Both the position numbers and the translations under genes were made by a program. Positions 7,020-33,130 of a stretch of 36,445 nucleotides of DNA are shown here, in pieces. Every line of letters begins with the position of its first letter. The first letter of the stretch is position 1. Under the pieces are notes generated by a model, which worked only from the letters and a program-made list of their open reading frames with translations, was not told where the DNA came from and made no database searches. This stretch comes from Actinomycetota bacterium (GTDB lineage Bacteria > Actinomycetota > UBA4738 > HRBIN12): NCBI GenBank assembly GCA_050692855.1, contig JBOGVO010000066.1, positions 1 to 36,445 of the forward strand, read 5' to 3'.

Positions 7020-9578
<2,559 letters not shown>

Positions 9579-9585
9579 GCTCGTC

Positions 9586-16465: not shown

Positions 16466-16553
16466 GGTCGAATCTTCCTCCTCGGAACACCGGTCGGGGA
16501 AGGAGGCTCTCCGGTGGCTCGTACGCCGGCCCCCCCTGGCGGAGCGTGAGCGT

Positions 16554-18674
16554 TCACATCGACGCGTCGCGGGTGATGGGGAGGCGTCCGCGGACCGTCG
16601 TGCCGCTCCCGGGGGTCGACGCGATCTCGACCTCGCCGCCGAGGGCCGAGAGGCGGTCGACGATCCCCAGCAGACCGGTCCCGAAGCTGGTGCCAGTCGC
16701 GTCGAACCCGCGGCCGTCGTCGGCGACCTCGAAGTGGAGTGCTCTGTCGCCGACCACGAGCCGTACGGTGGCCGAGGTCGCGTGCGCATACTTCGCCACG
16801 TTCTGCAGGGCCTCGAGCACGGAGAAGTACACCGTGGTCTCGGTCTCGGGCGGGAACCGACCGACCCCGTCGGCGTCGACCCTGACAGGCGTGGGGGACT
16901 TCCGCGCCTGCGCCTCGAGGGCGGCCGACAGCCCCCGGTCGGCGAGTAGCGGCGGGTAGATACCTCGCGCCAGATCTCGCAGATTCTCCAGTGCTTCGGT
17001 CAGGTCGTGCTGCAGATCCTCGAGCATCTCCTCGGTCCTCGCCGGGTCCTTCGCCGCGAGCCCGCCGGCGAGTCGTGCCTTCACCGACAGCGCGACGAGC
17101 TGCTGCTGGGCGCCGTCGTGGATGTCGCGCTCGAGCTTCTTGCGCCGGTCGTCCTGGGCGGCGACGATGCGGCGCCGCGACTCGCGCAGCTCCTCGATCA
17201 GGCGAACGTTCCGCAGCACGAGTCCGGCTTGGGAGGCCAGGTCGTGGACGATGCGCTGCCGCCCCGCGCCCATCGGATCGCTCGCCGCCATCTGTACCGA
17301 CAGGGCGCCGAGGAGCTCGCCCTGGTGTCGCACCTCGATCCCGTGCTCGCCGAGGGTTGCGTGGAAGTCGGGGAGGGTGTCGTCCGGCAGACGGATGGGA
17401 TCGACGCGGTCGGCGTCGACGGGCCAGGTCTGCGCCGGGCGGAGCTCCGATCCGACCCGGACCCACACGCGCGCCACCAAGGCGCCCGTCGCCTCGCCGA
17501 GCAGCTGGGCCATCCGTGGCAACACGTCCTCGGTCGAGTACGTCTCGCCGACCCGCTCGGAGAACTCGGTGAGGACCTCGTACGGGGTGGCCCGGCCACC
17601 GTAGACGATCCGATCCGCGATCCGTCGCGCGAGCCGCCAGAGCGGCCACACGGACAGGCCCACGATGAGGCCGGTGAGCCCGACGGCCTGCGTCTCGTCG
17701 GGTGCGAGGTCTGTGAGCGGGCTGCTGAGCGCCAGCAGGGTGCCGACCGAGACCGCCATCAGCAGCACGACCAGCACGCCGAACACGATCGTCTTCTTCA
17801 CGACGACGTCCAGTTCGTAGAGGCGGTACTTCAGGACCGCGACACCCATCGCGACCGGGACGCCGATCCCGATGAGCGCGAAGGCCACGATGAAGAACAG
17901 GTCCGCGGCCGGCGATCCGTCGTAAGAGGGCCCCATGACGAGCGCCGTCACGATGCCGGCCACGACCACCACGACCAGCGTGGCGGCGACGTACGCGAGC
18001 CATCGGATCTGTTGGCGCTCCTCGCCGGTCGACCTTCGGTAGCGCAGGACGAGCGCCGCGATCGCCGCCGGGACCGACAGGAACACCACCACGACGGCGC
18101 CCGCACCGCCCAGGATTTCGGGGACCCGCCCGAGCGCCTCGACTCCGAAGGGGCTGCTCAGCGTGACGTCGAGGCCGAGGTCCTCGAACGGGCTCGGGTT
18201 CAGCGCTGTGCCGAGAGCGGCCAGGGCCATGGCCGTTCCGAGGGTCCACGGCAGGAACCGCCATCGCGGGCCGGGCACGCGGCCCGTGGGGAACAACACC
18301 GCGAGCAGCGCCAAGCCGCCCATGATCGGCAGCCAGAGCATGTCCGACAACAGCGCCACCACGGGGCCAAATGCAGGGTCCGGTCGCGGGGCGGTCTCGT
18401 ACACGTACGTCAGGTACTCGCTGGATACGCCGGTGAACACGAAGGCGATGCCGATCGCGATCATCAGCCAACCGATCGGGTTGGCCGGGTTCCTCGACGC
18501 GAGCACGGCGCCGACGGTCGGGTACCCCAGGATCATCGCGACGGCGAGCGGCACGAAGTAGGGGTCCTCGGAGAGGCTGTCGTTGATCGCCACGAGCGTC
18601 ACGGTCGCGGCGAGCATGAGCACGCCGCCGCCCCACAGAAGCCACGGCAAGCGGGAGCGTCTCGCCTCCGTCAT
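16554..18674 (-). CDS. polytopic sensor histidine kinase paralogue B (multi-TM sensor, GAF-like, HisKA_3, HATPase_c)
   Basis: 706 aa. ATG 18674 overlaps the stop of C (ATGA). About 10 hydrophobic segments. Motifs are LFPTGRVPGPRWR, ERQQIRWL, LKYRLYELDVVVKKT and YGGRATPYEVL. H-box ERDIHDGAQQQLVAL, N-box EALQNVAKYA, DDGRGFD, GTGLLGIVDR. Confidence 0.92.
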   Translation of the reverse strand: MTEARRSRLPWLLWGGGVLMLAATVTLVAINDSLSEDPYFVPLAVAMILGYPTVGAVLASRNPANPIGWLMIAIGIAFVFTGVSSEYLTYVYETAPRPDPAFGPVVALLSDMLWLPIMGGLALLAVLFPTGRVPGPRWRFLPWTLGTAMALAALGTALNPSPFEDLGLDVTLSSPFGVEALGRVPEILGGAGAVVVVFLSVPAAIAALVLRYRRSTGEERQQIRWLAYVAATLVVVVVAGIVTALVMGPSYDGSPAADLFFIVAFALIGIGVPVAMGVAVLKYRLYELDVVVKKTIVFGVLVVLLMAVSVGTLLALSSPLTDLAPDETQAVGLTGLIVGLSVWPLWRLARRIADRIVYGGRATPYEVLTEFSERVGETYSTEDVLPRMAQLLGEATGALVARVWVRVGSELRPAQTWPVDADRVDPIRLPDDTLPDFHATLGEHGIEVRHQGELLGALSVQMAASDPMGAGRQRIVHDLASQAGLVLRNVRLIEELRESRRRIVAAQDDRRKKLERDIHDGAQQQLVALSVKARLAGGLAAKDPARTEEMLEDLQHDLTEALENLRDLARGIYPPLLADRGLSAALEAQARKSPTPVRVDADGVGRFPPETETTVYFSVLEALQNVAKYAHATSATVRLVVGDRALHFEVADDGRGFDATGTSFGTGLLGIVDRLSALGGEVEIASTPGSGTTVRGRLPITRDASM

Positions 18675-20788
18675 GGCAGCATCTCCTGCCGGAGCGACGT
18701 CGGCAGCCGACCCGACACGACGGTGCCTGCGGCGGGCGTCGACCGGATCTCGAGGTCCCCGCCGATCGCCGCGATCCGGTCGGTCATGCCCTGAAGGCCC
18801 GTGCCGCGGGCGGTCACGATCGGGTCGAACCCCACGCCGTCATCGAGGACCTCGAACGTCAATAACCCGTCTCGCTCTCTGAGCCGGACCGTCGTGGACG
18901 TGGCCCCCGCGTACTTGGCGACGTTCTGCAACGCCTCGAGGCACGAGAAGTACACGGCCGACTCGATCTCCTGCGGGTAGCGCCCGATCCCGTCGGGCTC
19001 GACGGTGGTGGGCACCGTCGCCCTCCGCGCCTGCGCCTCGAGGGCCGCGGCGAGGCCCTGGTCGGCCAGCAGCGGCGGGTAGATGCCGCGCGCGAAGTCG
19101 CGCAGGTCCTCCAGCGTCTCGGTGGCCTGGGTCTGGAGCTCTGCGAGCATGGTCTGCGCACGCTCCGGGTCGTGCCCTGCGAGCTGTTCGGCCAGGCGCA
19201 ACTTGACGGTGAGCGCGACGAGCTGCTGCTGCGCGCCGTCGTGGATGTTCCGCTCGAGCTTCTTCGCTCGCTCGTCCTGGGCAGCCACGATCCGGTGCCG
19301 CGACTCGCGGAGCTCCTCGATCAGGCGGACGTTCCGCAAGACGAGCCCGGCTTCGGATGCGAGTCCGCGCAGGATCCGCTCCTTCGAGGGGTTCATCGGG
19401 TCGCTCGATGCCATCTCGACCGTGAGGGCGCCGAGCAGCTCCCCCCGGTGACGCACCTCGAAGGCCTCCTCGCCGAAGTCCGGCAGGGCGTCGCCCGTGA
19501 CGCGCAGGGCGCGACGGCGATGGGCCTCGCCCGGCCAGGCCGCGGCCTCGCGAAGCTCCCCGCCTACGTGCAGCCACACCCGGGCGATCCGCGCGCGCGT
19601 GGCCTGGCCGAGCAACTGCGCCATGCGCGGCAGGACGTCCTCGGTCGAGTAGGTCTCGCCGACCCGCTCCGTGAAGTCGGAGAGCACCTCGTACGGGCTG
19701 GCGCGGCCACCGTAGACGACCCGGTCGGCCATGCGCCTCGCGAGTCGGTAGAGAGGCCAGACGAGCATGCCGATCACGAGCGTGACGATGCCGCCGGCCT
19801 GGGTGTCCTCGCCACGAGCACCCCGCGTCAGCACGCTGCCCACCACGACGAAGATGAGCACGCTGACGGCCATGATCAGCATGATCAGCACCGCGAAGAC
19901 CACGGTCTTCTTCACGACGACGTCGAGGTCGTAGAGGCGGTACTTCAGGATCGCGATACCGCAGGCAGCGGGGATCCCGAACATCAGCACGAGGAAGAAT
20001 CCGAAGAACGTGAGGTTGCCGACGACGTCGGTCTCGCCGACCTCGAACCCCAGCGCGGTCCGGATGCCCCAGCTTGCCAACCCGAGCACGAGGATCGCGA
20101 CCAGCAGCGCACCGACGAACGCGAGCCAGCGGATCTGCTGACGCTCCTCTTCCTGGGAGCGGCGGAATCGGAGCACGAGCGAGACCACGGCGAGCACCGA
20201 GCAGGCGAAGGCGACGAGACCCGCGATCCCGGTCACACCCTCCACGACGCCCCTCCACGCGAGCGGAAGCGCGAACGGGTTCATGACCGTGGCGTCGAAC
20301 TCGGCGAAGACGGCATCGATCCGGCCCGGAGTCAGCGCGAAGAGTGTCAGGTTGATCGCGAGCGCGGCGAGCAGCACGAGCAGGATCGGACGCCACCGCG
20401 GGCCGGGAACGCGTCCGGTCGGGTAGAGCAGGAACAGCAGTGGGATCGGTGCGAGGATGAACCCGAACCCGGCACGTCCGATCCACGCCGCCGCACCGGC
20501 GGCTGGCAGATCGACGCCGTCGTCGAACACCGAGCTGGCGTACACACCCGAGGCCAACGAGACCGCGAGCGCGAGCCCGATCCACGCCAGGAGCAGGCCG
20601 ATCCGGTTGTCGGGAGCCCTGGACGTGATCAACGCACCGACGGTCGCGTACGCGAGCATCGTCGGCGGCAGGACCGCGTAGGCGAACACGCCGGCCGGCG
20701 CCGAGTCGCGCAGATCGAGGAACAGCCACGCCACGAGCAGGATCATGGTGACGGCCCAGATCGCCCAGGCGACTCGGCGGGCGGTCAT
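18671..20788 (-). CDS. polytopic sensor histidine kinase paralogue C
   Basis: 705 aa. ATG 20788 overlaps the stop of D (ATGA). Same motif set: LYPTGRVPGPRWR, ERQQIRWL, LKYRLYDLDVVVKKT, YGGRASPYEVL, ERNIHDGAQQQLVAL, EALQNVAKYA, DDGVGFD, GTGLQGMTDR. Confidence 0.92.
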   Translation of the reverse strand: MTARRVAWAIWAVTMILLVAWLFLDLRDSAPAGVFAYAVLPPTMLAYATVGALITSRAPDNRIGLLLAWIGLALAVSLASGVYASSVFDDGVDLPAAGAAAWIGRAGFGFILAPIPLLFLLYPTGRVPGPRWRPILLVLLAALAINLTLFALTPGRIDAVFAEFDATVMNPFALPLAWRGVVEGVTGIAGLVAFACSVLAVVSLVLRFRRSQEEERQQIRWLAFVGALLVAILVLGLASWGIRTALGFEVGETDVVGNLTFFGFFLVLMFGIPAACGIAILKYRLYDLDVVVKKTVVFAVLIMLIMAVSVLIFVVVGSVLTRGARGEDTQAGGIVTLVIGMLVWPLYRLARRMADRVVYGGRASPYEVLSDFTERVGETYSTEDVLPRMAQLLGQATRARIARVWLHVGGELREAAAWPGEAHRRRALRVTGDALPDFGEEAFEVRHRGELLGALTVEMASSDPMNPSKERILRGLASEAGLVLRNVRLIEELRESRHRIVAAQDERAKKLERNIHDGAQQQLVALTVKLRLAEQLAGHDPERAQTMLAELQTQATETLEDLRDFARGIYPPLLADQGLAAALEAQARRATVPTTVEPDGIGRYPQEIESAVYFSCLEALQNVAKYAGATSTTVRLRERDGLLTFEVLDDGVGFDPIVTARGTGLQGMTDRIAAIGGDLEIRSTPAAGTVVSGRLPTSLRQEMLP

Positions 20789-22824
20789 CTGCGGGCCTCC
20801 GTCGTGTTCACGGTCGTCCTCCCTATCACGCCGGCGACGATGGTGCCCTGACGAGGGATGCTTCGCACGTCGACCTCTCCACCGAGTGCGGCCAGCCGGT
20901 CGGTGATGCCCTGCAAGCCGGTGCCGGCGTGCACATCGGCCACATCGAAACCGACACCGTCATCCTCGACCTCGAACCGAAGCTCGCCGCCGCCCTCGTT
21001 GAGTCGGACGTCCACGTGCTCTGCCCGGGCGTACTTCGCGACGTTCTGCAGCGCCTCCAGCACCGAGAAGTAGACGGCTGACTCCACTTCTTGCGGGTAA
21101 CGGCCGACGCCGTCGGTGTCGACCCCGACCGGCACGGCCGCCTTCCGCGCCTGCGCCTCGAGGGCGGCTCCCAGGCCCTGGTCCGCCAGCAGCGGCGGGT
21201 AGATGCCGCGGGCGAGGTCGCGGAGGTTCCCGAGCGCGTCGTTCGTCTCGGCACGGATCTCCGCGAGCATCAACCGGGCCTGCTCGTCGTCCTCCCCGAC
21301 GAGCGACTCCGCCAGGCGCTGCTTCACCGCGAGGGCCACGAGCTGCTGCTGTGCCCCGTCGTGGATGTCGCGCTCGAGCTTCTTCGCCCGCTCGTCCTGG
21401 GCCGCGACGATGCGCCGTCGGGACTCGCGCAGATCCTCCACGAGCCGCACGTTCCGTAGCACCAGCCCCGCCTGGGCGGCGAGGTCGCCAACGAGCTTCT
21501 CCGTGGCGGGGTTCATCGGATCGTTGGAGGGCATCTCGACCGAGAGGGCTCCCAGCATCTCGCCCCGATGCGAGACCTCCACCGCACCGGTCGGGAGCGA
21601 CTTCACAGCGGTCTCCATGGGCCACGAGGCCGCGGGCCGCATCCGCCCGTCGAGCATCAGCCACACCGTCGCGCTGGAGGCCCCCGTGCCCTGTCCGAGG
21701 ATCTGCGCCATGCGGGGGAGCACGTCGTCGGCCGCGTAGGCTCCTCCCATCCGCTCCGAGAACTCGGTCAGCACCTCGTACGGCGTCGCGCGCTTGCCGT
21801 ACACGACGCGGTTCGCGAGTCGCTGTGCCCACCGGCGCACCGGCTGGAACGCGATCGCCACGACCGCGGCCGCGATCGCGGACAGGAACGCATTGCCGAC
21901 GTTTTCGGCGAGCGCACCGATACCTACGACGAACCCGATGTAGACGAGCGTGATGAACCCACCGAGCACGCCGTAGACGACCGCCTTCGAGATCACGAGG
22001 TCGATCTCGTAGAGGCGGTAGCGCAGGATCGCGATGCCGGCCGCCACGGGAAGGGCCGCCACGCCGAATTGCACGACCAAGGCCACGAGGAACGAGTCCT
22101 GGAGCGGCGTCTCGTGGGTTACGGCCGACAGGAGGTATCCCAGGGCGAGGAACACGGCCGCGAGGGCGAACCACTTCATCTGCTGTCGCTCGACGCCGGC
22201 CGCTCGCCGGAACCGCATCACCATCGAGACCGCGGCGGCGATGAGCGCGATCGGAAGCAGGACCCACCCGACACCCCCCTCGTCGAGCAGCGACCCGTCG
22301 AGGGCGTCGACCCCGAGCGGGTTGACGACGTCCTCCTGACCCGGGATCGGTCCCGGCGTGAGCGTGAATCCCGCGACCAGCGTGACGGCCGCGACCACGT
22401 CGATCCAGACGGCGATCCTCCACCGCGGGGAGAGGAGCCGTCCATCCGGGAACAGCAGCATGACCAGGGTCTGGAGCGCGAGCCCGACGAGACCGAACGA
22501 TGCGGTCAGGGTCGCCCACTCCCGGCCGGGCAGTGGCGGGTTCGCGTCGCCGTACGTGCCGCCAAGAGTGGCGAGTCCGGTCGCGAGCCCGATCGCGCAG
22601 AACAACCAGCCGATCCGGTTCTCGGGCTGTCGAGTGGCGATCAGCACGCCCATCACCGGGAAGGTCGCGAGCACGGTCGCGAACAGCACGTCCACTACCG
22701 GAGGCGTGTCGAGCTGATCCGACAACGTGTCGGTCGCAACGCCCAGGGCCGCGCCGGCGGCCAGGGTCGCGAGCGCGAGCCCACCGAGGATCCACGCCAG
22801 CCGTCTCGCTGTGGGTGCCTCCAT
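20785..22824 (-). CDS. polytopic sensor histidine kinase paralogue D (first gene of the D-C-B(-A) operon)
   Basis: ATG 22824 (MEAPTARRLAWILGG) has GAGGTG just upstream. The 45 codons further upstream in ORF 20785..22959 look non-coding. 679 aa. Motifs are LFPDGRLLSPRWR, ERQQMKWF, LRYRLYEIDLVISK, YGKRATPYEVL, ERDIHDGAQQQLVAL, EALQNVAKYA. Confidence 0.9.
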   Translation of the reverse strand: MEAPTARRLAWILGGLALATLAAGAALGVATDTLSDQLDTPPVVDVLFATVLATFPVMGVLIATRQPENRIGWLFCAIGLATGLATLGGTYGDANPPLPGREWATLTASFGLVGLALQTLVMLLFPDGRLLSPRWRIAVWIDVVAAVTLVAGFTLTPGPIPGQEDVVNPLGVDALDGSLLDEGGVGWVLLPIALIAAAVSMVMRFRRAAGVERQQMKWFALAAVFLALGYLLSAVTHETPLQDSFLVALVVQFGVAALPVAAGIAILRYRLYEIDLVISKAVVYGVLGGFITLVYIGFVVGIGALAENVGNAFLSAIAAAVVAIAFQPVRRWAQRLANRVVYGKRATPYEVLTEFSERMGGAYAADDVLPRMAQILGQGTGASSATVWLMLDGRMRPAASWPMETAVKSLPTGAVEVSHRGEMLGALSVEMPSNDPMNPATEKLVGDLAAQAGLVLRNVRLVEDLRESRRRIVAAQDERAKKLERDIHDGAQQQLVALAVKQRLAESLVGEDDEQARLMLAEIRAETNDALGNLRDLARGIYPPLLADQGLGAALEAQARKAAVPVGVDTDGVGRYPQEVESAVYFSVLEALQNVAKYARAEHVDVRLNEGGGELRFEVEDDGVGFDVADVHAGTGLQGITDRLAALGGEVDVRSIPRQGTIVAGVIGRTTVNTTEARR

Positions 22825-22928
22825 GCCGCACCTCGACGTATGTGTCCAACGTGACGAGCGTGGCACTTCGACGACCGGAGTCCAAGGGGGGGACCCTGCC
22901 CGCTTCCGCGCCGGAACATCACCGTCAG

Positions 22929-22945
22929 AGTGGTGCTGGCACCAC
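22929..22945. promoter_or_regulatory. 7-2-7 inverted-repeat operator candidate, copy 2 (AGTGGTGCTGGCACCAC)
   Basis: Perfect palindrome GTGGTGC-TG-GCACCAC at 22930-22945. It lies 104 nt upstream of the kinase D ATG and 76 nt upstream of the divergent USP ATG. It is near-identical to 13887-13903. Confidence 0.55.
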
Positions 22946-23021
22946 CCGCGCTTCCGCATGGCCGCGCCGTCGTCGCCGGGCGCCGCGACGCCTACCGTGG
23001 GATCGGAAGGAGGCGAGATCG

Positions 23022-23429
23022 ATGACGACGATCGTGGTGGGAACCGATACCTCGCCGGCGGCTGACCTCGCGGTGGACGACGCGGCGAGGCTGGCGCGCG
23101 ACCGCGGTGCGGAGCTCGTGATCCTCTACGTGGGGAGCGGTGACGGGCTGCGGTCGGTGGTGGACCCCGCCCGGGCTGCCGACCCCGGCCGGCACCTCGC
23201 GGCGATGGAGGCCCGCTACCCGGAGCTCAGGGTGCACACGCGGATGGAGGAGGGTGACCCGGCCGAGACGATCTGCGACGTCGCGGAGCAAGAGCGCGCG
23301 GAGACCATCGTGGTCGGCAACCGAGGCACGCACGGCTCGTGGTGGCGGGTGCGCGACAGCGTGCCGAACCTCGTCCTGCGCTACGCACCGTGCAGCGTCT
23401 ACATCGCCGACACGCGGAGGGCGCAATGA
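23022..23429 (+). CDS. universal stress protein (UspA family)
   Basis: ATG 23022 is preceded by GGAAGGAGG (23005-23013). MTTIVVGTDTSPAADLAVDDAARLA ... IVVGNRGTHG ... VPNLVLRYAPCSVYI is the typical USP fold signature. 135 aa. Confidence 0.88.
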   Translation: MTTIVVGTDTSPAADLAVDDAARLARDRGAELVILYVGSGDGLRSVVDPARAADPGRHLAAMEARYPELRVHTRMEEGDPAETICDVAEQERAETIVVGNRGTHGSWWRVRDSVPNLVLRYAPCSVYIADTRRAQ

Positions 23430-23453
23430 CAAGCGAGGCGAGCCTACGCTTGT
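23429..23453. terminator. possible bidirectional hairpin between convergent USP and response-regulator genes
   Basis: ACAAGCG (23429-23435) and CGCTTGT (23447-23453) form a 7-bp stem with an 11-nt loop that spans both stop codons. There is no clear U-tract, so this is weak. Confidence 0.25.
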
Positions 23454-24112
23454 TCGGTCTCCCGCAGGAAGGCCAGAACGGCCATCACCCGGCGGTGCAC
23501 GGCGGGCTCCTCGGTCAGGTCGAGCTTGTGGAACAGCGAGTTGATGTGCTTCTCGACCGCCCGCTCGGTGAGGAACAGCGACTTCGCGATCGCCGCGTTG
23601 TTCTGTCCCTGCGCCATGTGGCTCAGCACCTCGCGCTCGCGGTCGGTGAGCGTCGCGAGCGGGGAGTGCGCCATGCGGTCCTTCGCCGCCACCAGCGCCT
23701 CGACGACCTTGGGGTCGAGCACGCTGCCGCCCCGGGCGACCTCCGTCAGGGCGCGCACCACCTCGTCCACGTCGGCCACGCGTTCCTTGAGCAGGTAGCC
23801 CAGACCCCCCGCGCCGTCCTTCAGCAGGTCGTACACGTACTCCTCGTCGGCGAACTGCGAGAGCACGACCACGCCGACGCTCGGGTGCTCGGCCCTGATC
23901 GCCTTGGCCGCTCGGATCCCCTCGTCGGTGCCCGTCGGGGGCATCCGGATGTCGGTGAGCACGGCGTCGGGAGAGTGCGCCTCGACCGCCGCGAGCAGGT
24001 CGTCGTAGGCTTCGGCCGTGCCGACGACATCGACGTCGTCGACGCTCGAGAGCAACGCTACGGTGCCCTCGCGGACCAAGTAGTTGTCCTCCGCGAACAC
24101 GACGCGCAGCAT
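23444..24112 (-). CDS. NarL/LuxR-family response regulator (REC + LuxR HTH)
   Basis: ATG 24112 gives MLRVVFAEDNYLV; the alternative is GTG 24133. Acceptor context VLTDIRMPP, then GYLLKERV, and HTH LTDREREVLSHMAQGQNNAAIAKSLFLTERAVEKHINSLFHKL. Confidence 0.9.
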   Translation of the reverse strand: MLRVVFAEDNYLVREGTVALLSSVDDVDVVGTAEAYDDLLAAVEAHSPDAVLTDIRMPPTGTDEGIRAAKAIRAEHPSVGVVVLSQFADEEYVYDLLKDGAGGLGYLLKERVADVDEVVRALTEVARGGSVLDPKVVEALVAAKDRMAHSPLATLTDREREVLSHMAQGQNNAAIAKSLFLTERAVEKHINSLFHKLDLTEEPAVHRRVMAVLAFLRETEQA

Positions 24113-24120
24113 GCGCGGAT

Positions 24121-24134
24121 GGTACACGTGCACC
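24121..24134. promoter_or_regulatory. near-palindrome GGTACACGTGCACC centred on CACGTG in a 44-bp divergent intergenic region
   Basis: 12 of 14 positions are self-complementary. It sits between the regulator start (24112, minus) and the REC-HTH-cyclase start (24157, plus). Confidence 0.35.
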
Positions 24135-24156
24135 CCCAGGCCGGAAGGCGAGCGGC

Positions 24157-25446
24157 GTGAGTATCACGGTCGTGCTCGGCGAGGACAACGTGCTCGTGCG
24201 CGAGGGCGTGCGCGCGCTGCTCGACTCCTACGACGACATCGAGGTCGTGGGCGTCGCCGAGGACGGGCCCTCGCTCCTGGCAGCCGCCGCCGAGCACGTG
24301 CCCGACGTGGTCGTGACCGACATCAAGATGCCGCCGTCGTTCCAGCTCGAGGGCATCGACTGCGCGCACGCGATCCGCGAGCAACACCCCGACACCGGGG
24401 TTGTGGTGCTCTCCGCTCATGACGATGAGGAATACGCGCTCGCCTTGCTCGGCCGCGGGCACAGTGGGCTCGCGTACCTCCTGAAGGATCGCATCGCCCA
24501 GGGCGACGAGCTGGCACGCGCGATCCGCGAGGTGCACGCGGGGGGCAGCACCGTCGACCCCACGATCGCCGAGCGGCTCTCGGGGCGCGGCGACGCGGCC
24601 GAGCGCGACCGCGAGCTGCTCGACATGATGGCCAAGGGCCTCGGGTACGCCGAGATCGCCGAGGCGCTCGGCACCACGCAGGAATCCGTCGACCGGCAGG
24701 TGACGGAGCTGTTCCGCGGCCTGGCGGGCGACAGCGGGGGCGGTGCCGGGCTCGTCGACGAGTTCAAGCGGATGCACGCGGCCGTGGTCGAGCAGACCGC
24801 CTCGCGGAACACGCTCGCGTCGTTCGTGCCCCAGCAGCTCGCCGACCGTCTCGCCGCGCATCCCCAGTCCGCGATCGAGCCGCAGGAGGTCGAGGTCACG
24901 GTCCTGTTCAGCGACATCCGCGGCTTCACGACGATCGCCGAGCGACTCGAGGCCCGCGAGGTCGCGGCCGTCGTCGGGCGGCATCTCTCCGCGATGGCCG
25001 AGGTCGTGGCCGCGCACGACGGCACGATCGACCAGTTCCAGGGGGACGCGGTGATGGCGGTCTTCGGCGCACCCGAACCGCTCGTCGACCACGCCGAGCG
25101 AGCGTTGCGGTGTGCGATCGCGATGCAGGCCCGACAGGCCGAGCTGAATGCGGAAGGCTGGAGCGTCGAGGGCCTGCCCGATATGGGAGTGGGCATCGGC
25201 GTGAACACCGGCCCGGTGATCGCGGGGACGGTCGGCGGCGGCGGGAGGCTCGAGTACACCGTGGTCGGCGACGCGGTGAACGTCGCCTCGCGCCTACAGG
25301 GGGAAGCGGAGGGCGGCGAGATCGTTGCCGCGGCGACCACCGTCGCGGCTGCCGACGGCATCGAGTGCGAGCCGATCGGCTCGCGCCATGTGAAGGGTCG
25401 CGAGGAAGCGGTGGAGGTTTTCCGGGTGAAGGCGGCGGGGCGATGA
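24157..25446 (+). CDS. response regulator with LuxR-type HTH and C-terminal class III adenylate/guanylate cyclase domain
   Basis: GTG 24157 has GGAAGG 9 nt upstream. REC: VVLGEDNVLV, VVVTDIKMPP (Asp55), AYLLKDR. HTH-like: ERDRELLDMMAKGLGYAEIAEALGTTQESVDRQVTELF. Cyclase: VTVLFSDIRGFT (Asp253), FQGDAVMAVFGAP (Asp297), GIGVNTGPVIAGTVG, EYTVVGDAVNVASRL (Asn375, Arg379). Confidence 0.88.
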   Translation: MSITVVLGEDNVLVREGVRALLDSYDDIEVVGVAEDGPSLLAAAAEHVPDVVVTDIKMPPSFQLEGIDCAHAIREQHPDTGVVVLSAHDDEEYALALLGRGHSGLAYLLKDRIAQGDELARAIREVHAGGSTVDPTIAERLSGRGDAAERDRELLDMMAKGLGYAEIAEALGTTQESVDRQVTELFRGLAGDSGGGAGLVDEFKRMHAAVVEQTASRNTLASFVPQQLADRLAAHPQSAIEPQEVEVTVLFSDIRGFTTIAERLEAREVAAVVGRHLSAMAEVVAAHDGTIDQFQGDAVMAVFGAPEPLVDHAERALRCAIAMQARQAELNAEGWSVEGLPDMGVGIGVNTGPVIAGTVGGGGRLEYTVVGDAVNVASRLQGEAEGGEIVAAATTVAAADGIECEPIGSRHVKGREEAVEVFRVKAAGR

Positions 25447-27509
25447 GCCTGAGCGAGCGGCGGCTGCGTCGCCTCGCACGCTTGGCGTTCGTGATCGTGG
25501 TCGTCGGATCGATCGCCACGATCGCGCTCGAGATCGCCGCCGGACGCCTCGACGAGGTCGTGTTCTCCGCGCTCTTCCTGTCGTTCCCGGCCGTCGGGCT
25601 CTTCGTGCTCTGGCGCAAGCCCGACGCGCGCCTCGCCTGGGTCATGGTCGGGATGGGCGTGGGCGCCGCGATCCTGGGCCCGGTGACAGGCTACGGCGCG
25701 CTTGCCATCGAGCACGACCTGCCGTTCGGACCGGTGGCGCTCGCGATCGGAGGGCCGGGCTGGGTGCCGTTCATCGCGGGCTCGGGCTTCCTGCTGCTGC
25801 TCTTCCCCGACGGGCACCTGCCGTCGCCGCGCTGGCGGTGGTTCGCGTGGTTGTGCGGCATCGCCCTCACGATCGTCTTCGTCACGATCTGGTTCTACCC
25901 GGGTGACTTCGCCGACTCTGGCTATCCCGAGATCGAGAACCCGATCGGGATCGAAGCGATCGGGAGCGTGCTCGACATCTTCGGGTTCCTGCTGCTCTCC
26001 GCGCCTCTGCTCGTCGTCGGCGGGTTCGTCTCGCTCGTCGTTCGGATGCGCCGCTCGACGGATGAGATCCTCAGGCATCAGATCCGCTGGCTCGCGTACG
26101 CCGCGTCGATCATGGCCTCGTTGTTCGTCCTGTCCTTCACCCCCGGCCTGGGGAACGACGAGGGGTGGAGCTCGTGGATCCAGAGCCTCGGCGCGATGAG
26201 CTTCATGCTGATCCCCGTCGCGACCGGTTTCGCGATCCTGCGTTACCGCCTGTACGACATCGACGTCGTGATTCGCAAGACCGTGGTGATCGCGGTGATG
26301 GTCGGGTTCATCGCGATCGTCTACGTCACGGTGGTCGCCGGCGTGGGCGCGATCGTCGGGGCCAGCAGCAACGCGCCGCTCCTGTCCGCCCTGGCCGCGG
26401 CGATCGTCGCGCTGGTGTTCCAGCCCGTGCGGGCGCGGGCCCGCCGGTTCGCCGACCGCATCGTGTACGGCAAGCGCGCCACGCCCTACGAGGTGATGGC
26501 GACGTTCGGCGACCAGCTCGCCGGCACGTACGCAGCCGACGATGTGCTGCCGAGGACCGCTCGTGTGCTCGCCGAGGGCGTCGGTGCCGAACGTGCCGAG
26601 GTGCGCCTGGCTGTCGGGGACGACATGCGGAGCCTCGCCGTCTGGCCGCCCGATGCTCCCGAAGCGGCCGACGACTGCATGGCCGAGGTGCGGCATCAGG
26701 GCGAGTTGCTCGGCTCCCTGGCCGTCTCGCTGCCGGCCAACGATCCGATCGACCCGACCAGGGAACAACTCGTGCAGGATCTCGCGGCCCAGGCAGGACT
26801 GGTGCTCCGCAACGAGCGCCTGACCCAGCAGCTGCGCGCCCGGCTCGCGGACCTCCAAGCGGCGCAGAAGCGTCTCGTCGCGGCCCAGGACGACGAGCGT
26901 CGCAAGCTCGAGCGGAATATCCACGACGGCGCCCAGCAGCAGCTCGTGGCTCTGCAGGTGCGCCAACGCCTGGCGGAACGGCTCGTCGATCGCGACCCCG
27001 CCAAGGCGAAGGCGATGCTCGATGGACTCCAGACCGATACGGGCAAGGCGCTGGACGACCTGCGGGACCTCGCACGCGGCATCTACCCGCCGCTCCTCGC
27101 GGACAAGGGACTCGGCGCTGCGCTCGAAGCCCAGAGCAGGAAGTCCCCGATCCCCATCCGGGTCGAGGCCGACGGTGTCGAACGCTTGCCGCAAGAGGTG
27201 GAGGCGGCCGTCTACTTCTCGGCGCTCGAAGCCCTGCAGAACACGGCGAAGTACGCGCACGCGTCCCATGCGACGGTGACGCTCCTCCGCGCGAACGGCT
27301 CACTCGCGTTCACGGTCACCGACGACGGCACGGGGTTCGACGTGAGCACGACCGGCTACGGCACGGGGCTGCAGGGCATCGCCGATCGGCTGGGTGCCCT
27401 CGACGGCGAGCTCGAGATCCTGAGCCGTCCCGGGTCGGGAACCACGGTGACCGGTCGCGTGCCGATCGCCGCCGGCTCCGCCGACGCGCCGCTCGAGGAT
27501 CTGACGTGA
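25443..27509 (+). CDS. polytopic sensor histidine kinase paralogue E
   Basis: ATG 25443 overlaps the cyclase stop (ATGA). 688 aa. Motifs are LFPDGHLPSPRWR, RHQIRWL, LRYRLYDIDVVIRKT, YGKRATPYEVM, ERNIHDGAQQQLVAL, EALQNTAKYA, DDGTGFD, GTGLQGIADR. The upstream 111 codons of ORF 25110..27509 are an out-of-frame overlap with the cyclase gene. Confidence 0.92.
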   Translation: MSLSERRLRRLARLAFVIVVVGSIATIALEIAAGRLDEVVFSALFLSFPAVGLFVLWRKPDARLAWVMVGMGVGAAILGPVTGYGALAIEHDLPFGPVALAIGGPGWVPFIAGSGFLLLLFPDGHLPSPRWRWFAWLCGIALTIVFVTIWFYPGDFADSGYPEIENPIGIEAIGSVLDIFGFLLLSAPLLVVGGFVSLVVRMRRSTDEILRHQIRWLAYAASIMASLFVLSFTPGLGNDEGWSSWIQSLGAMSFMLIPVATGFAILRYRLYDIDVVIRKTVVIAVMVGFIAIVYVTVVAGVGAIVGASSNAPLLSALAAAIVALVFQPVRARARRFADRIVYGKRATPYEVMATFGDQLAGTYAADDVLPRTARVLAEGVGAERAEVRLAVGDDMRSLAVWPPDAPEAADDCMAEVRHQGELLGSLAVSLPANDPIDPTREQLVQDLAAQAGLVLRNERLTQQLRARLADLQAAQKRLVAAQDDERRKLERNIHDGAQQQLVALQVRQRLAERLVDRDPAKAKAMLDGLQTDTGKALDDLRDLARGIYPPLLADKGLGAALEAQSRKSPIPIRVEADGVERLPQEVEAAVYFSALEALQNTAKYAHASHATVTLLRANGSLAFTVTDDGTGFDVSTTGYGTGLQGIADRLGALDGELEILSRPGSGTTVTGRVPIAAGSADAPLEDLT

Positions 27510-29631
27510 TGGAGGGTCGATCGACGCCGGTGCGCTCCCGGTCGCCGGCCCACCCGGCGCGGTGGCCGTGGGTCGTGTTCGCGTCGTTCCTCTCCGCGGC
27601 AGTCCTCGGCCTCGTCCTCGTCGCCGCGAACGAGGCCTCGATCGGCGAGCAGATGCCGTTCGTCGTGGCGTTCTCGATGTTCGGCGTCGTCGGCGCGCTC
27701 ATCGTGAGCCGTGAGCGCAGGAACGTGATCGGTGGCCTGCTGCTGTACGGATCGTTCGCCACCGCGCTTTCCTTCGTGGCCGGCGAGCTCTTCACCTGGC
27801 TCGTGTCGCGCGGTTCGACCGGTGCGCTCGCCCAGGTCATGGGCCTGCTGTCGTCCCTCGGCTGGTTGTTCGGGATCCTTCCCGTGCTGTTCGTGCTGCC
27901 GCTGTTGTTCCGGACGGCCGTCTTCCGTCAGCTCGGTGGAGGCCGTTCCTGTGGCTCATCCTCGCGAGCCTGGCGCTCATGTTCGTCGGCCTCGCGTTCG
28001 GTGAGCCGCTGCTGTCAGGGTCCAACGAACGCCCGACGATCCCCAACCCCCTGTACATCAGCGCGCTCGACGCGGCCCGGATACCAGACGCCGTCTTCGG
28101 GCTCCTCTACTTCGGCATCTTCGCGACGTCGGTGGCCTCACTGTTCGTTCGGTTCCGCGGGTCGAGCGGGACCGAACGGCAGCAGATCAAGTGGGTCGCG
28201 TTCGGCGTCCTCGCAGGCTTCGTCGCCGCCTTCCTCAGCGACGCGATCGCCGGCGAGCCCTTGCTGAGCGCGGTGGTCGGCGGAGCCGGTTTCCTCGCCT
28301 TCCCGGTCTCGATCGGCATCGCGGTCCTGCGGTTCCACCTCTACGACCTCGACGTCCTCGTCCGGAAGACCGTGCTGTACGCGGCGCTCGCCCTCTTCGC
28401 GACGCTCGTGTACCTCGCGGTCGTGGTCGGCGTGGGGGCATGGCTGGGCAGGGGGAGCTCGGTCCTGACGATGATCGCGGCCGTCGTCGTGGCCGTGACC
28501 TTCCAGCCCGTCCGAGCGCTGGTGACGCGGTTCGCCGACCGGCTCGTGTACGGGAAGCGCGCCACGCCCTACGAGGTGCTTTCGGATTTCTCCGAGCGCG
28601 TCGGCGGCGCGTACGCGGATGAGGACGTGTTGCCGCGCATGGTCCGGGTGCTCGGCGAGGGGGTCGGGGCGGAACGAGCCGACGTCTGGCTCGCCGTCGA
28701 AGGCGAGCTCCGGGACGTCGCGACGTGGCCGTCGGATGCCGCTACCAGGCAGCCGATCCGCACGACGGAGGGATCCGGACCGACCACCAACGGGATCGAG
28801 GGCGGATTCCCGGTCGAGCACGCGGGCCAGTTGCTCGGCGTCCTGGCGGTGGTGAAGCCCGCGAACGATCCCCTGACTCCCGCCGACGAGAAGCTGGTCA
28901 CCGATCTCGCCGCCCAAGCCGGACTCGTCCTTCGGAACGTCCGGCTCACCGAGGAGCTCCTGGCGCGTCTCGACGACCTCCCGGGCGGCCCAGAAACGTC
29001 TCGTCAACGCCCAGGACGAAGGGCGACGCCGGCTCGAGCGAAACATCCACGACGGGGCGCAACAACAGCTCGTCGCCCTCACGGTGAAGTCTCGCCTGGC
29101 GCGATCGATCGCCCGGCGCGACCCCGCCAAGGCGCTCGAGGTGCTCGGCCAGATCGAGGCCGAGACACAGGAAGCGCTCGAGGACCTGCGCGACCTGGCT
29201 CGAGGGATCTACCCTCCCCTCCTAGCCGACAAGGGCCTTGCGGGCCGCCCTCGAGGCGCAGGCGCGCAAGTCACCCCTGCCCGTGATGGTCGAGGCCGAC
29301 GGTGTCGGGCGCATTCCGCAGGAGATCGAGGCGGCTGTGTACTTCTCCGCCCTCGAGGCTCTGCAGAACACGGCGAAGTACGCTGAGGCATCGTCGGCGA
29401 CGGTCTCGCTCCGGCGTTCGAACGGGGCGCTCTGGTTCTCGGTCACCGACGACGGCCGGGGGTTCGATCCAAACGCGACCGAGGGGCGGAACCGGTCTGC
29501 AGGGCATCGCGGACCGACTGGGTGCGCTCGACGGCACCTTGGAGATCGAGAGCAGTCCCGGAGCGGGCACGACGGTGACGGGACGGGTGCCTGTGCAGGC
29601 TGGCGAGCGCGACGAAGGGCGGACGGTGTGA
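27506..29631 (+). pseudogene. sensor histidine kinase paralogue F, disrupted by four single-base indels
   Basis: GTG 27506 overlaps the E stop (GTGA). Homology to E hops through frames 2>1>2>0>1. There is a -1 at ~27910-27912 (LLF[P]DGRLPSARWR), a +1 at ~28980-28982 (LDDL|RAAQKRLV), a +1 at ~29241 (DKGL|AALEAQARKSP) and a +1 in the G-run at 29483-29486 (NATE|GTGLQGIADR). The length is 2126 nt, which is 708 codons plus a net +2. Confidence 0.85.
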
Positions 29632-29825
29632 CCAGACGGACATCGGCTCGTCCTAAGGGCTTCCGCCGGATCGAGCGTTGGATGGTCGGCGTGGTCTTCG
29701 CGGTCATGGCGTTCGTGCTCGAGAAGTTCGTGCTCCACGCGGTCCGGAAGAAGGGCGTGGCCGAGGAGCCCGAGGAGGTCACGACGATGATCTCCAAGGG
29801 TGGCGAGGTCGACGTCGACCTCTAG
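29628..29825 (+). CDS. small hypothetical membrane protein (65 aa, or 47 aa from ATG 29682)
   Basis: GTG 29628 overlaps the F stop (GTGA). A basic N-terminus (RRTSARPKGFRRIERW) is followed by one hydrophobic helix (MVGVVFAVMAFVLEKFVL) and an acidic tail. Codons are GC3-rich. I recognise no family. Confidence 0.4.
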   Translation: MTRRTSARPKGFRRIERWMVGVVFAVMAFVLEKFVLHAVRKKGVAEEPEEVTTMISKGGEVDVDL

Positions 29826-29840
29826 TCCGATCGAGACTAG
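29822..29840. terminator. possible bidirectional hairpin embedding both convergent stop codons
   Basis: CTAGTC (29822-29827) and GACTAG (29835-29840) form a 6-bp stem with a 7-nt loop. Both TAG stops (29823-29825 plus strand, 29837-29839 minus strand) lie in the arms. The stem is weak. Confidence 0.2.
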
Positions 29841-31978
29841 TTACGCCGTCGCACGAGGTCGATCACGAGCGCGAGCGTCAGCAGCAGCGCACTCGCACCG
29901 AACGCTCCCGGCAACCAGCCCGGCACCCGGTCGCTGACCGCCGTGAGGGCCGTGCCCAGGATCGCCGCGCCGGCGGTGAGCGCGAGCGCCAGCCGCCGCC
30001 CCGCGCGCCGGATCGTCGTCTCGAGCGTCGCCGCGCGGAAGTTCACCTCGAGCTTCTGGCCGGGGCGCGCCCCGATCAGGCGCTCGACGGCTTCCACGAC
30101 CCGGTGGAACCGCACCTTGAACCGTTGCGCCTGGTAGAAGAGCGCCTTCGGATCGGCCTTGCTCGTCATGTCGCGAACGAGCGCCCGCATCAGGAACGAT
30201 CCCGCCACGTCGAACGGGTCGAGCTCCGGGTCGAGCTCGGCCGTGGCGAGCTGCATCTGCGCGAGTGCCTTCCCGGTGAGCGCGAGCGACGCCGGCAGGG
30301 GCACCTCGTGGCGGAGCGAGATCTCCGTCACCTCCTGCAGGATCGGCCCGAGCTGGATGTCGGCGAGCGACGCCGTGCGGTACTTGGCGACCATCGCACC
30401 CATCTCCTCGCCGAACGCGTCGACGTCGAGATCGGTGCGGTCCATCGCCCCGGCGAGCATCAGCGTCACGTCGGTGAGGAACGAGACGTCCTCCTGCCAG
30501 AACGCCATCAGCAGCAGCAGGAGCTGCTCGCGCATCTCGGGGCTGACCTCGCCGATCATGCCCAGGTCGAGCAGGTACAGGCGCTCCTCCGCAGGTTGCC
30601 ACATCAGGTTGCCCGGGTGCGGGTCGGCGTGGAAGAACCCGTCGACCATGATCTGCTTGTAGAAGCTCTCGAGCAGCTGCCGGGCGGCTTCCTTGCGCGG
30701 GGTCCCCTCGGGCGCGATCGAGATCGGCCCTCCCTGCACGTCCTGCATCACGAGCAACCGGGAGGTCGACAGATCGGCGTGCACCACCGGCACCCGCAGC
30801 CTGGGGTACTGGGCGATGCTTTCGCGCAGGCGCTCGATGTTGCCCGCTTCCTGCCGGAAGTCGAGCTCGCGGTGCAGGGAGTCGGACAGATGCTGGAAGA
30901 CGGCGTGCATGTCGATCACCTGACGCAGGCCCGGGCGGGCGGAGACCTTCTCAGCGAAGACCTCGAGCAGCGCGAGATCCTGTTCGATCTGCTCCCGGGC
31001 ATCGGGGCGTTGCACCTTCACCACGACCGGGTCGCCGGTGGCGAGGGTGGCGCGGTGGACCTCGGCGATCGTGCCGGCGGCTAGCGGGGCCGGGTCGATG
31101 TGTTCGAAGACGTCCTCCCAGGGCACGCCGAGCTCCTGCTCCATGACCTCCACGACGTCCTGCTCGCTCAGGGGCGGCACGTTGTCCTGCAGGGTCGCGA
31201 GCTCCTCGATGTATTCGGGCGGAAGCAGGTCCGGCCGCGTGGACAGGATCTGCCCGAGCTTCGCGAAGGTGGGGCCGAGCTCCTCGAGGGCGGCGCGCAG
31301 ACGTTTGCCCTGGCGCCTCCGCCCGACCGCGCCCTCCTCGTCGGGACGGCCGAACAGTTCCTTCAGGCCGTGTTTGGCGAAGACGGCGGCGATGCGGCCG
31401 CCGCGCGCCGTGAGCCGCGGGGTGAACTCCGTCTCCTCGGCGGCGCTGATGCGCACCTGGGCCGAGGTGGGCGAGGGCGTGTTGGCGACGACGTGCCCGT
31501 CTCCGGCCGTGTTGACGATGATCACGGTGCAGCGGGCGTTGTGGCTGATGCGGTTCGGCACGTTGCCGAGCAAGAACTCCTTGCGTCCAGCCATGCCCGC
31601 GTTCCCGACGACCAGCACGTCGATGGCGTGCTCCTCGGTGGCCTCGACGATCGCCATCGCCGGGTCGTCGTGGATCACGACGTGGCCGTGTCCCCGGTCC
31701 CCCGCCACCGCCCGGGCGTAGGTCTGCAGGTCGTCGGCGGCCGAGCGGGCGCGGGTGACCTCCGCCGCCCCGTACTCCGTGTCGGCTCGGCTCGTCGGCA
31801 CGATCACCTGTACCACGTGGAGCTCGGCACCGAACGCCTCGGCGAACGTCGCAGCCCATCGCACGGCGCGTTCGGCGGTCTGTGAGCGGTCGGTGCCGAC
31901 CATCACGCGCTCGATCGGGCCGGCGATCTGCGGCTGGGCCTCGGCGTTCATGGGCGCATCATGGCGGTTCGGAGCCAT
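29837..31978 (-). CDS. USP domain fused to ABC1/UbiB-family atypical kinase, with C-terminal membrane anchor
   Basis: ATG 31978; the alternative is ATG 31951. The ORF portion upstream of these overlaps the SGNH gene. USP: ERVMVGTDRSQTAERAVRWA ... LVVGNAGMAGRKEFLLGNVPNRISHNARCTVIIV. ABC1: FAKLGQILSTRPDLLPPEYIEELATLQDNVPP, AEVHRA, VVKVQRP, HADPHPGNL, LLDLGMIG. Two terminal hydrophobic helices. Confidence 0.85.
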   Translation of the reverse strand: MAPNRHDAPMNAEAQPQIAGPIERVMVGTDRSQTAERAVRWAATFAEAFGAELHVVQVIVPTSRADTEYGAAEVTRARSAADDLQTYARAVAGDRGHGHVVIHDDPAMAIVEATEEHAIDVLVVGNAGMAGRKEFLLGNVPNRISHNARCTVIIVNTAGDGHVVANTPSPTSAQVRISAAEETEFTPRLTARGGRIAAVFAKHGLKELFGRPDEEGAVGRRRQGKRLRAALEELGPTFAKLGQILSTRPDLLPPEYIEELATLQDNVPPLSEQDVVEVMEQELGVPWEDVFEHIDPAPLAAGTIAEVHRATLATGDPVVVKVQRPDAREQIEQDLALLEVFAEKVSARPGLRQVIDMHAVFQHLSDSLHRELDFRQEAGNIERLRESIAQYPRLRVPVVHADLSTSRLLVMQDVQGGPISIAPEGTPRKEAARQLLESFYKQIMVDGFFHADPHPGNLMWQPAEERLYLLDLGMIGEVSPEMREQLLLLLMAFWQEDVSFLTDVTLMLAGAMDRTDLDVDAFGEEMGAMVAKYRTASLADIQLGPILQEVTEISLRHEVPLPASLALTGKALAQMQLATAELDPELDPFDVAGSFLMRALVRDMTSKADPKALFYQAQRFKVRFHRVVEAVERLIGARPGQKLEVNFRAATLETTIRRAGRRLALALTAGAAILGTALTAVSDRVPGWLPGAFGASALLLTLALVIDLVRRRN

Positions 31979-32036
31979 TGCGACCAGATGGGTCTGCACC
32001 GCATCTCCGAAGATCGACCATGCGTCGAGGACCACC

Positions 32037-32966: not shown

Positions 32967-33130
32967 GGAACCCTCCCGCGGCTCGACGGATGGGCCGACG
33001 GTAGGCATCGCACGAGGCGACCGCATCGATGACAACCCGCGCCGTCGCTGGGGGATACCCCTGATGACCCCGGACTCGAGAGGTGGCAGGATGAGCGACG
33101 CCCGCGAACGATGCCGTCGACCGAGGCCGC

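Follow-up and report, generated by a model that had tools for sequence, protein, structure and literature searches.

The window analysed here, the whole 36,445-nucleotide stretch of contig JBOGVO010000066.1 (assembly GCA_050692855.1) from an Actinomycetota bacterium, carries a gene whose product joins a receiver domain (REC), a helix-turn-helix (HTH) of the LuxR type and a class III nucleotidyl cyclase homology domain (CHD). This gene lies between a divergently transcribed gene for a canonical NarL-type regulator and the genes for two histidine kinases of the HisKA_3 type, called here E and F (Table 1). It is a real gene, with a G+C content at third codon positions (GC3) of 0.92 where the window as a whole has about 70%, and its start codon, ATG or GTG, is at a common position in the orthologous loci compared. 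A scan of positions 23400-29900 for consensus promoters and terminators gave no match, which is no surprise at a genomic G+C content near 70%.

Table 1. Features of the cyclase gene and its surroundings, in window coordinates unless a locus is named (aa, amino acids; AF2, AlphaFold 2; cNMP, cyclic nucleoside monophosphate; PDB, Protein Data Bank)
Feature	Position	Strand	Basis or remark
REC / relic-HTH / class III cyclase response regulator gene (HTH a probable relic)	24157..25446	+	429 aa, GTG start, TGA stop
Shine-Dalgarno-like GGAAGG	24143..24148	+	8 nt 5' of the GTG; purine-rich block kept in most orthologous loci
Receiver domain, residues 3-127	24163..24537	+	Pfam and AF2
Inter-domain linker with short helix, residues 128-147 (GGSxVDPxIAERL)	24538..24597	+	AF2 helix 135-141
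LuxR/NarL-type HTH, probable relic, residues 148-190	24598..24726	+	three helices, net charge -5
Gly-rich hinge GDSGGGAG, residues 191-198	24727..24750	+	replaces the short loop preceding helix 4 in canonical LuxR domains
Long and short helix into the cyclase, residues 199-240	24751..24876	+	AF2 helices 196-221 and 226-234
Class III cyclase homology domain, residues 241-424	24877..25428	+	Pfam, PDB, Foldseek
Gln293 codon, CAG	25033..25035	+	purine-specifying position; Lys in aligned CyaB, Glu in Cya2
ATGA overlap of cyclase stop and kinase E start	25443..25446	+	sequence
Kinase E, membrane / GAF-like / HisKA_3 / HATPase_c, 688 aa	25443..27509	+	Pfam
Kinase F, paralogous HisKA_3 kinase	27509..29631	+	ATG overlaps the kinase E stop; frame broken at least four times
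Canonical NarL-type regulator (REC and full GerE HTH)	23444..24112	-	GerE 51.5 bits; paralog of cyclase protein residues 1-189
Conserved intergenic block GCGCGGATGGTACAC	24113..24127		abuts the neighbour's ATG; near-invariant in 45 aligned loci
cNMP-binding proteins of the distant clade	L081 4008-5027; L082 4803-5825; L084 3796-4815; L085 3875-4867	-	distant clade

Conservation was scored in a set of 77 full-length orthologous proteins from species-level genomes. At the N-terminus, the Pfam profile Response_reg matched residues 6-104 with 62.3 bits (cut-off 30.2), and the AF2 model has the (beta-alpha)5 fold with a predicted local distance difference test score (pLDDT) of about 90. E9, D10, the phospho-acceptor D55, S86, the aromatic switch Y107 and K110 are invariant in the orthologs, and the ratio of non-synonymous to synonymous substitution rates (dN/dS) is 0.095 in this domain. 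By its receiver the protein is a two-component response regulator, and the linker that follows can be aligned to the one that joins REC and HTH in NarL-family regulators.

At the C-terminus, the Pfam profile Guanylate_cyc matched residues 245-419 with 92.7 bits. The closest PDB sequences are those of Cya2, Pseudomonas aeruginosa CyaB, bPAC and Spirulina CyaC (E 1e-34 to 1e-23), and the modelled domain superposes in Foldseek on solved cyclases (Cya2, CyaB) with template modelling (TM) scores of 0.84-0.89. The metal-binding D253 and D297 and the transition-state N375 and R379 are invariant in the 77 orthologs. With this domain, the two metal aspartates and the Asn/Arg pair, the protein is a class III nucleotidyl cyclase. 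All nine receiver and cyclase residues named in the first-pass annotation (E9, D10, D55, S86, K110, D253, D297, N375 and R379) are thus present and invariant in the orthologs; in a set of 88 distant homologs eight of the nine are invariant or nearly so, E9 being replaced by Asp.

The segment between the two domains had been described in that annotation as a recognisable though atypical LuxR HTH, a claim that a profile search without a match was to refute. Pfam misses it. On the window protein, GerE reached 16 bits against a cut-off of 23.5, over profile positions 5-42 of 57, and Sigma70_r4_2 reached 20.5 bits against 25.7. None of the 101 family members scanned reached the GerE threshold (24 matched at E<0.05, the best at 0.003), and the Pfam domains listed for 240 homologs are PF00072 and PF00211 only. 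No NCBIfam cut-off was reached; the NarL, MctR and MadR models align only as far as the recognition helix, and no dedicated model was found there. The protein has no four-helix GerE domain above the family threshold.

More sensitive profile and structure methods do find the HTH. First, a family profile of residues 126-244, made from 21 diverse members and searched against all PDB sequences, returned LuxR-type HTHs as all of its top 20 matches, the best being DevR (6e-6), the NarL C-terminal domain (8e-6) and DosR (2e-5). Second, residues 1-189 share 48% identity (E 2e-56) with the divergent neighbouring NarL regulator; in BLASTP the HTH alone matched the HTH of this neighbour with 39% identity over 41 residues (E 5e-10), and hhalign of the two HTH family alignments gave a probability of 93%. 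Third, the AF2 model of residues 1-240 has a mean pLDDT of 83 (86-91 in the HTH), and its best PDB matches in Foldseek were full-length VraR, LiaR, spr1814, DesR, RcsB and ChrA, aligned over 194-226 columns that take in the receiver and the HTH. The segment shares common ancestry with LuxR-type HTHs, and these profile, BLASTP, hhalign and structure-model matches therefore confirm the three-part architecture that had been proposed. The protein very likely derives from a regulator of the subfamily to which the neighbour belongs. The earlier description is to be corrected in that the HTH stays below threshold in Pfam and has three alignable helices, the fourth not being alignable.

It could be argued that the middle region is a mere linker with a fading resemblance to an HTH, and the protein a plain REC-cyclase, since Pfam calls REC and cyclase only in the 240 listed homologs and in the 101 scanned members. 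We regard this as very improbable. The dN/dS of the HTH is 0.22, equal for practical purposes to that of the cyclase domain (0.21), which argues for a module that still has a function and against a linker in decay; its core residues (R152, L155, M158, G161, G163, Y164, A168, T174, E176, V178, D179 and F186) are invariant in the 77 orthologs, the module persists between clades at 44-49% identity, and its AF2 fold is confident.

The HTH is made up of AF2 helices 145-159, 164-171 and 175-190, which correspond to the scaffold helix and the helix-turn-helix itself. All alignments to canonical regulators end where the recognition helix ends. When NarL and DosR are bound to DNA, their dimer contact is made by the fourth LuxR helix. 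No confident alignment was obtained for this helix in the cyclase protein, and a Gly loop and a long helix are found in its place. The hinge is poorly defined in the model (pLDDT <50 for residues 192-196), and helices 196-221 and 226-234 connect it to the catalytic domain near residue 243. Close orthologs carry the motifs KR(L/M)HAAVVE and SFVPxQLAxRL in this region, and the forms (K/R)(L/M)H-A-A-(V/I)-V-E and L-x-S-(F/L)-(V/L)-P-x-x-L-A are kept in both the close and the distant clade. From residue 214-216 onwards the sequence can be aligned to the helices that precede the catalytic domains of bPAC and of a cyclase linked to a phytochrome; the hydrophobic positions 199, 203, 206, 210, 220 and 224 show a 3-4 spacing, and the dN/dS of the long helix is 0.33. 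Judged from sequence and model, residues 199-240 are likely to form a coiled-coil or signalling-helix transducer. In a test for a displaced fourth helix, one weak HMMER alignment ran into DevR helix 10, and hhalign confidence was zero there.

The position of the gene at the head of a kinase operon was also borne out. Kinase E is an adjacent, co-oriented HisKA_3/HATPase_c kinase, so that the two genes form a two-component operon, and it is likely to be the cognate kinase of the cyclase regulator. In about 30 of the 77 orthologous loci a HisKA_3 kinase gene begins less than 50 bp after the cyclase gene; the 77 loci differ in how many kinases follow, and four of them (L037, L041, L060, L076) have none immediately downstream. 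The translational coupling that had been proposed for both kinases holds for kinase E, by its ATGA overlap. Kinase F likewise overlaps the stop codon of E, but its reading frame is broken: in tblastn with its paralogs it is homologous over its whole length, in frames 2, 3, 1 and 2 with the N-terminus in a further frame, and the shifts lie near 27900, 28965, 29235 and 29475. Either the gene is a pseudogene, or its assembled sequence contains indel errors. A second disrupted HisKA_3 kinase, at 14347-16400 on the minus strand, is split over three frames; an intact open reading frame (ORF) of 229 aa within it (14347-15036, minus strand) holds the dimerization and histidine phosphotransfer (DHp) and ATPase domains only. 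Two of the seven window kinases are therefore disrupted.

These seven kinases, all paralogous proteins with multi-pass membrane, GAF-like and HisKA_3 parts, are encoded at 14347-22959, 25443-29631 and 33095-35185 and are 40-63% identical to one another. The receivers found among them are those of two canonical NarL regulators, one stand-alone receiver and the cyclase regulator only. The number of kinase copies beside the cyclase gene differs between related genomes (L001-L080), which points to rapid duplication and loss.

The neighbouring canonical regulator is encoded divergently, 44 bp upstream of the cyclase gene in the window and 29-74 bp upstream in 75 of the 77 complete-ortholog loci. 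In the 45 aligned loci, the short intergenic region is variable outside GCGCGGATGGTACAC. Read on the minus strand, this block gives TACCAT, six nucleotides and the ATG, an arrangement that looks like the -10 element of a leaderless mRNA.

Orthologs with 71-93% identity were found in 135 species-level genomes, all of them metagenome-assembled genomes (MAGs) of uncultured Actinomycetota, mostly from soil. After clustering at 50%, the whole architecture was present in only four full-length clusters among the top 150 matches. The wider family exceeds 6,600 proteins at E<1e-30, with metagenomic members in the thousands, and its taxa include Gaiellaceae, Microthrixaceae, Acidimicrobiales and Jatrophihabitantaceae. 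A sub-family of about 560 residues (P0128, P0272-P0283 and similar) has the same core of REC, relic HTH and cyclase followed by a second, C-terminal receiver. In databases these proteins are named 'adenylate/guanylate cyclase domain-containing protein', 'response regulator' or, in those of the Joint Genome Institute (JGI), by two COG names combined; as the HTH escapes Pfam, automatic annotation makes them cyclases or response regulators.

A distant clade of the family, 44-49% identical to the window protein, retains the HTH module. Its gene is the first of an operon of cyclase, ATP-binding cassette (ABC) ATPase and FtsX-type permease in five of five loci, and a HisKA_3 kinase gene follows this operon in the three loci long enough to show it. 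Members of the type with about 450 residues are divergent, in four of four loci, to a gene for a protein of 330-340 residues with a C-terminal cNMP-binding domain; the N-terminal region of the latter, of about 230 residues, gave no Pfam match. This protein is a candidate dedicated receptor, and its presence argues, circumstantially, that the family makes a cyclic nucleotide. Beyond the cNMP-binding gene and on the same strand, a Lactamase_B_2 gene is found in L081, L082 and L084.

The capacity of the HTH to read DNA was assessed by scoring the recognition helices of the cyclase protein and of the neighbouring paralog in the same genomes. In the neighbour, each residue of the helix ERAVEKHINSLFHKL is conserved at 0.93 or above, except Glu183 (E/D, 0.84) and Leu193 (L/M, 0.72). 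In the cyclase protein, positions 180, 181, 184, 187 and 188, which lie on one helical face, are conserved at 0.49-0.73 and the buried positions are invariant. The net charge of the HTH module across orthologs averages -4 (range -7 to -1), compared with 0 in the neighbour, and Glu176 and Glu169 occupy the positions of the neighbour's Arg184 and Lys177. The consensus of the recognition helix in the distant clade is PEAVNxAVExLFLxLA, with no conserved basic residue; Arg or Lys is found in a minority of members, at positions 184, 187 and 188 only. Sequence-specific DNA binding by the HTH has probably been lost, and the conservation pattern suggests that the fold has probably been retained for a structural or signalling role between the phospho-receiver and cyclase dimerisation. 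Asp179, at the position of NarL Lys188, was considered as proof of lost DNA binding and was dropped: the neighbour, with a GerE score of 51.5 bits, has Glu there. It reads A-V-E-K-H at this site (E187), and Arg180 of the cyclase protein aligns with its Lys188.

The first-pass annotation had proposed that one phosphorylation event controls both DNA binding and cNMP synthesis. In such a regulator the HTH would bind DNA, and phosphorylation of D55 would switch on promoter binding together with cNMP synthesis; the messenger would perhaps be made locally at target promoters, or the protein would perhaps autoregulate the divergent promoter region. The homology of the HTH to LuxR HTHs, its good fold in the model and the purifying selection on it are consistent with this, as is the common occurrence of Arg180, Gln/Arg181, Arg187 and Arg188 in close orthologs. 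The functional-looking neighbour is also acidic at the NarL Lys188 position, and the cyclase dimer could stand in for the helix-4 dimer contact. We nevertheless consider a dual output unlikely, as the DNA-facing positions are precisely those that vary among orthologs, the module has a net charge of -4 and carries Glu176 and Glu169 in place of basic residues of the neighbour, the distant clade has no conserved basic residue in its recognition helix, and no scanned member reaches the GerE threshold. Moreover, the 44-bp intergenic DNA consists mostly of the -10-like block and the Shine-Dalgarno sequence, and no conserved inverted repeat was found in it. Control of both activities by one phosphorylation is consequently not favoured, given a fourth helix that is not alignable, an acidic HTH and a drifting recognition face.

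The residues that specify the purine are less uniform than the catalytic ones. Lys at the first purine-specifying position contacts adenine in canonical enzymes, and Glu is the guanine-specifying residue in Cya2, a guanylyl cyclase. The window protein has Gln293 at this position, which the first-pass annotation had overlooked, and Thr368 at the second; with this pair it does not have the Lys plus Asp/Thr combination of a canonical adenylyl cyclase. Among the 77 orthologs, position 293 is Lys in 74 (AAG in 73, AAA in one), Glu in two (GAG; L068 and L073) and Gln in the window alone. Gln was found in three of the 120 closest protein clusters (P0015, P0038, P0041); as it recurs in independent clusters, a sequencing error is not the explanation, and Gln is a natural allele. 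The specificity pairs of the 118 readable members of the distant clade are Gln/Thr in 92, Gln/Ser in 22, Gln/? in two and Lys/Thr in two. Gln is therefore normal in this cyclase family, and cyclase activity of the window protein is predicted. Reportedly, Mycobacterium tuberculosis Rv0386 is an active cyclase with a Gln/Asn specificity pair. Among close relatives the purine codon toggles by single first-position changes between AAG (Lys), CAG (Gln) and GAG (Glu). As Glu is guanine-specifying in Cya2, relatives may differ in product. The Lys293 orthologs probably make cAMP; for the Gln293 protein of the window, the sequence does not tell whether the product is cAMP, cGMP or a mixture of the two.

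The change from Lys to Gln might also make the window copy a weak cyclase or shift its substrate to GTP or other nucleoside triphosphates, and the protein might then serve mainly as a phosphate sink that competes with the neighbouring regulator for the paralogous kinases. Gln293 is indeed a minority form in the close clade (one of 77 species representatives, three of 120 protein clusters), and the window has seven paralogous kinases for three or four receivers. An impaired or altered cyclase of this kind is nonetheless doubtful, as Gln is found in 116 of the 118 readable members of the distant clade, which keeps all other catalytic residues and has the cNMP-binding neighbour in the four loci named above, and as the rest of the window protein shows no degeneration. 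That the protein is a bifunctional DNA-binding regulator with local cNMP synthesis and that, in addition, Lys/Gln/Glu293 variation switches relatives between cAMP and cGMP is a combination to which we give little credence.

Instead, we consider it reasonably probable, from the sequence comparisons and models above, that the protein is a phosphorylation-controlled class III (IIIb-like) cyclase on a NarL/LuxR-type chassis, in which the former DNA-binding domain acts as a transducer. A regulator of the neighbour's subfamily would have gained a CHD just past the recognition helix, and the HTH would have been kept as a compact acidic three-helix module that is no longer selected for reading DNA sequence. 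A HisKA_3 kinase, the coupled kinase E and perhaps other paralogs of the cluster, would phosphorylate D55. NarL-family receivers dimerise on phosphorylation; the phospho-receiver would accordingly dimerise and/or free the HTH module, as in VraR, LiaR and DesR, and bring the two long helices (residues 199-235) into alignment. The active form of class III cyclases is the dimer, and the cyclase domains would then pair head-to-tail, creating the active sites, and cNMP would be made. By this mechanism the output of this two-component branch would be a second messenger, and the neighbouring canonical regulator would supply the transcriptional branch.

Several observations weigh against this proposal. 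Gln293 may lower the activity of the window allele, and neither the window nor, in 80 close loci, the DNA up to 10 kb from the gene codes for a cNMP-binding protein. A displaced fourth helix could lie where the long helix begins, in which case the HTH would be complete, and, the neighbour having E187 at the NarL Lys188 position, Asp179 alone does not exclude DNA binding. Finally, the inter-domain geometry of the AF2 model is of low confidence (predicted TM score, pTM, 0.50), as is the long helix, with a pLDDT of 44-54 in a monomer model.

Among known systems, the NarL/FixJ regulators (VraR, LiaR, DesR, DevR/DosR, NarL) share with the window protein the receiver, the linker and the first three HTH helices, with PDB sequence matches of 1e-13 to 1e-15 over residues 1-193, and their partner kinases are likewise of the HisKA_3 type. 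The window protein differs from them in a fourth helix that cannot be aligned, an acidic HTH with a variable recognition face and a 230-residue extension of helix plus cyclase. Receiver-regulated class III cyclases exist as REC-CHD response regulators and as hybrids such as cyanobacterial CyaC. In the REC-CHD cyclases the receiver is likewise upstream of the class III domain and phosphorylation presumably controls the activity of the cyclase dimer, whereas the window protein has a NarL-type chassis with the HTH relic between receiver and cyclase. Its catalytic domain is 36-38% identical to those of Cya2 (2W01), CyaB (3R5G), bPAC (5M27) and Spirulina CyaC (1WC0), at the TM scores given above. 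It matches class IIIb-like soluble cyclases in the metal Asp pair and the Asn/Arg residues and has Thr at the second specificity position as in CyaB; it differs from CyaB (Lys) and Cya2 (Glu) in its first specificity residue and in its regulatory N-terminus.

Proteins of the M. tuberculosis Rv0386 type also combine a class III cyclase and a LuxR-type HTH in one actinobacterial polypeptide. In these the CHD comes first, an NB-ARC/AAA ATPase is central, a canonical HTH is last and a receiver is absent; the order in the window protein is REC, HTH relic, CHD. No ATPase domain was matched by Pfam in the window protein, which is not of the Rv0386 type.

The first-pass annotation knew of no described REC-HTH-cyclase arrangement. 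No description of such a protein was found in the searchable literature, and a 2012 census of actinobacterial LuxR architectures contains CHD+LuxR but not REC+LuxR+CHD. The arrangement is nevertheless abundant in databases, with 135 genome loci and the more than 6,600 proteins of the wider family. Receiver-controlled class III cyclases are already known; the version on a whole NarL-type regulator with an HTH relic is, to our knowledge, undescribed.

Two further genes of the window were noted. An opposite-strand gene at 29837-32218 encodes a 793-residue fusion of Usp and an ABC1 atypical kinase, and an ABC1-Usp kinase gene of this kind is found downstream, on the opposite strand, in all sufficiently long loci but L080. 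Between topA and holB, a plus-strand ORF of 732 aa (9427-11625) joins a major facilitator superfamily (MFS) transporter (residues 85-363) and a thymidylate kinase (residues 521-708); either the two are fused, which would be unusual, or a boundary between two genes was missed.

In conclusion, the finding is a probable case of domain exaptation and not a new kind of system; it opens no long-standing question, and the dual-output reading is the less likely one. If a phosphorylation-controlled cyclase on a NarL-type chassis is the correct reading, the protein would be a clear evolutionary intermediate, in which a transcription-factor regulator has been rewired to a second messenger and the DNA-binding domain kept as a structural part. 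It would provide a natural test case of how a NarL-family receiver may signal to an output other than DNA and of the roles that the HTH fold may have besides DNA binding. The variation between Lys, Gln and Glu at the purine-specifying site constitutes a natural series on cyclase substrate choice. The family is abundant in uncultured soil Actinomycetota, where it is unstudied and, as a three-part architecture, invisible to Pfam-based annotation.

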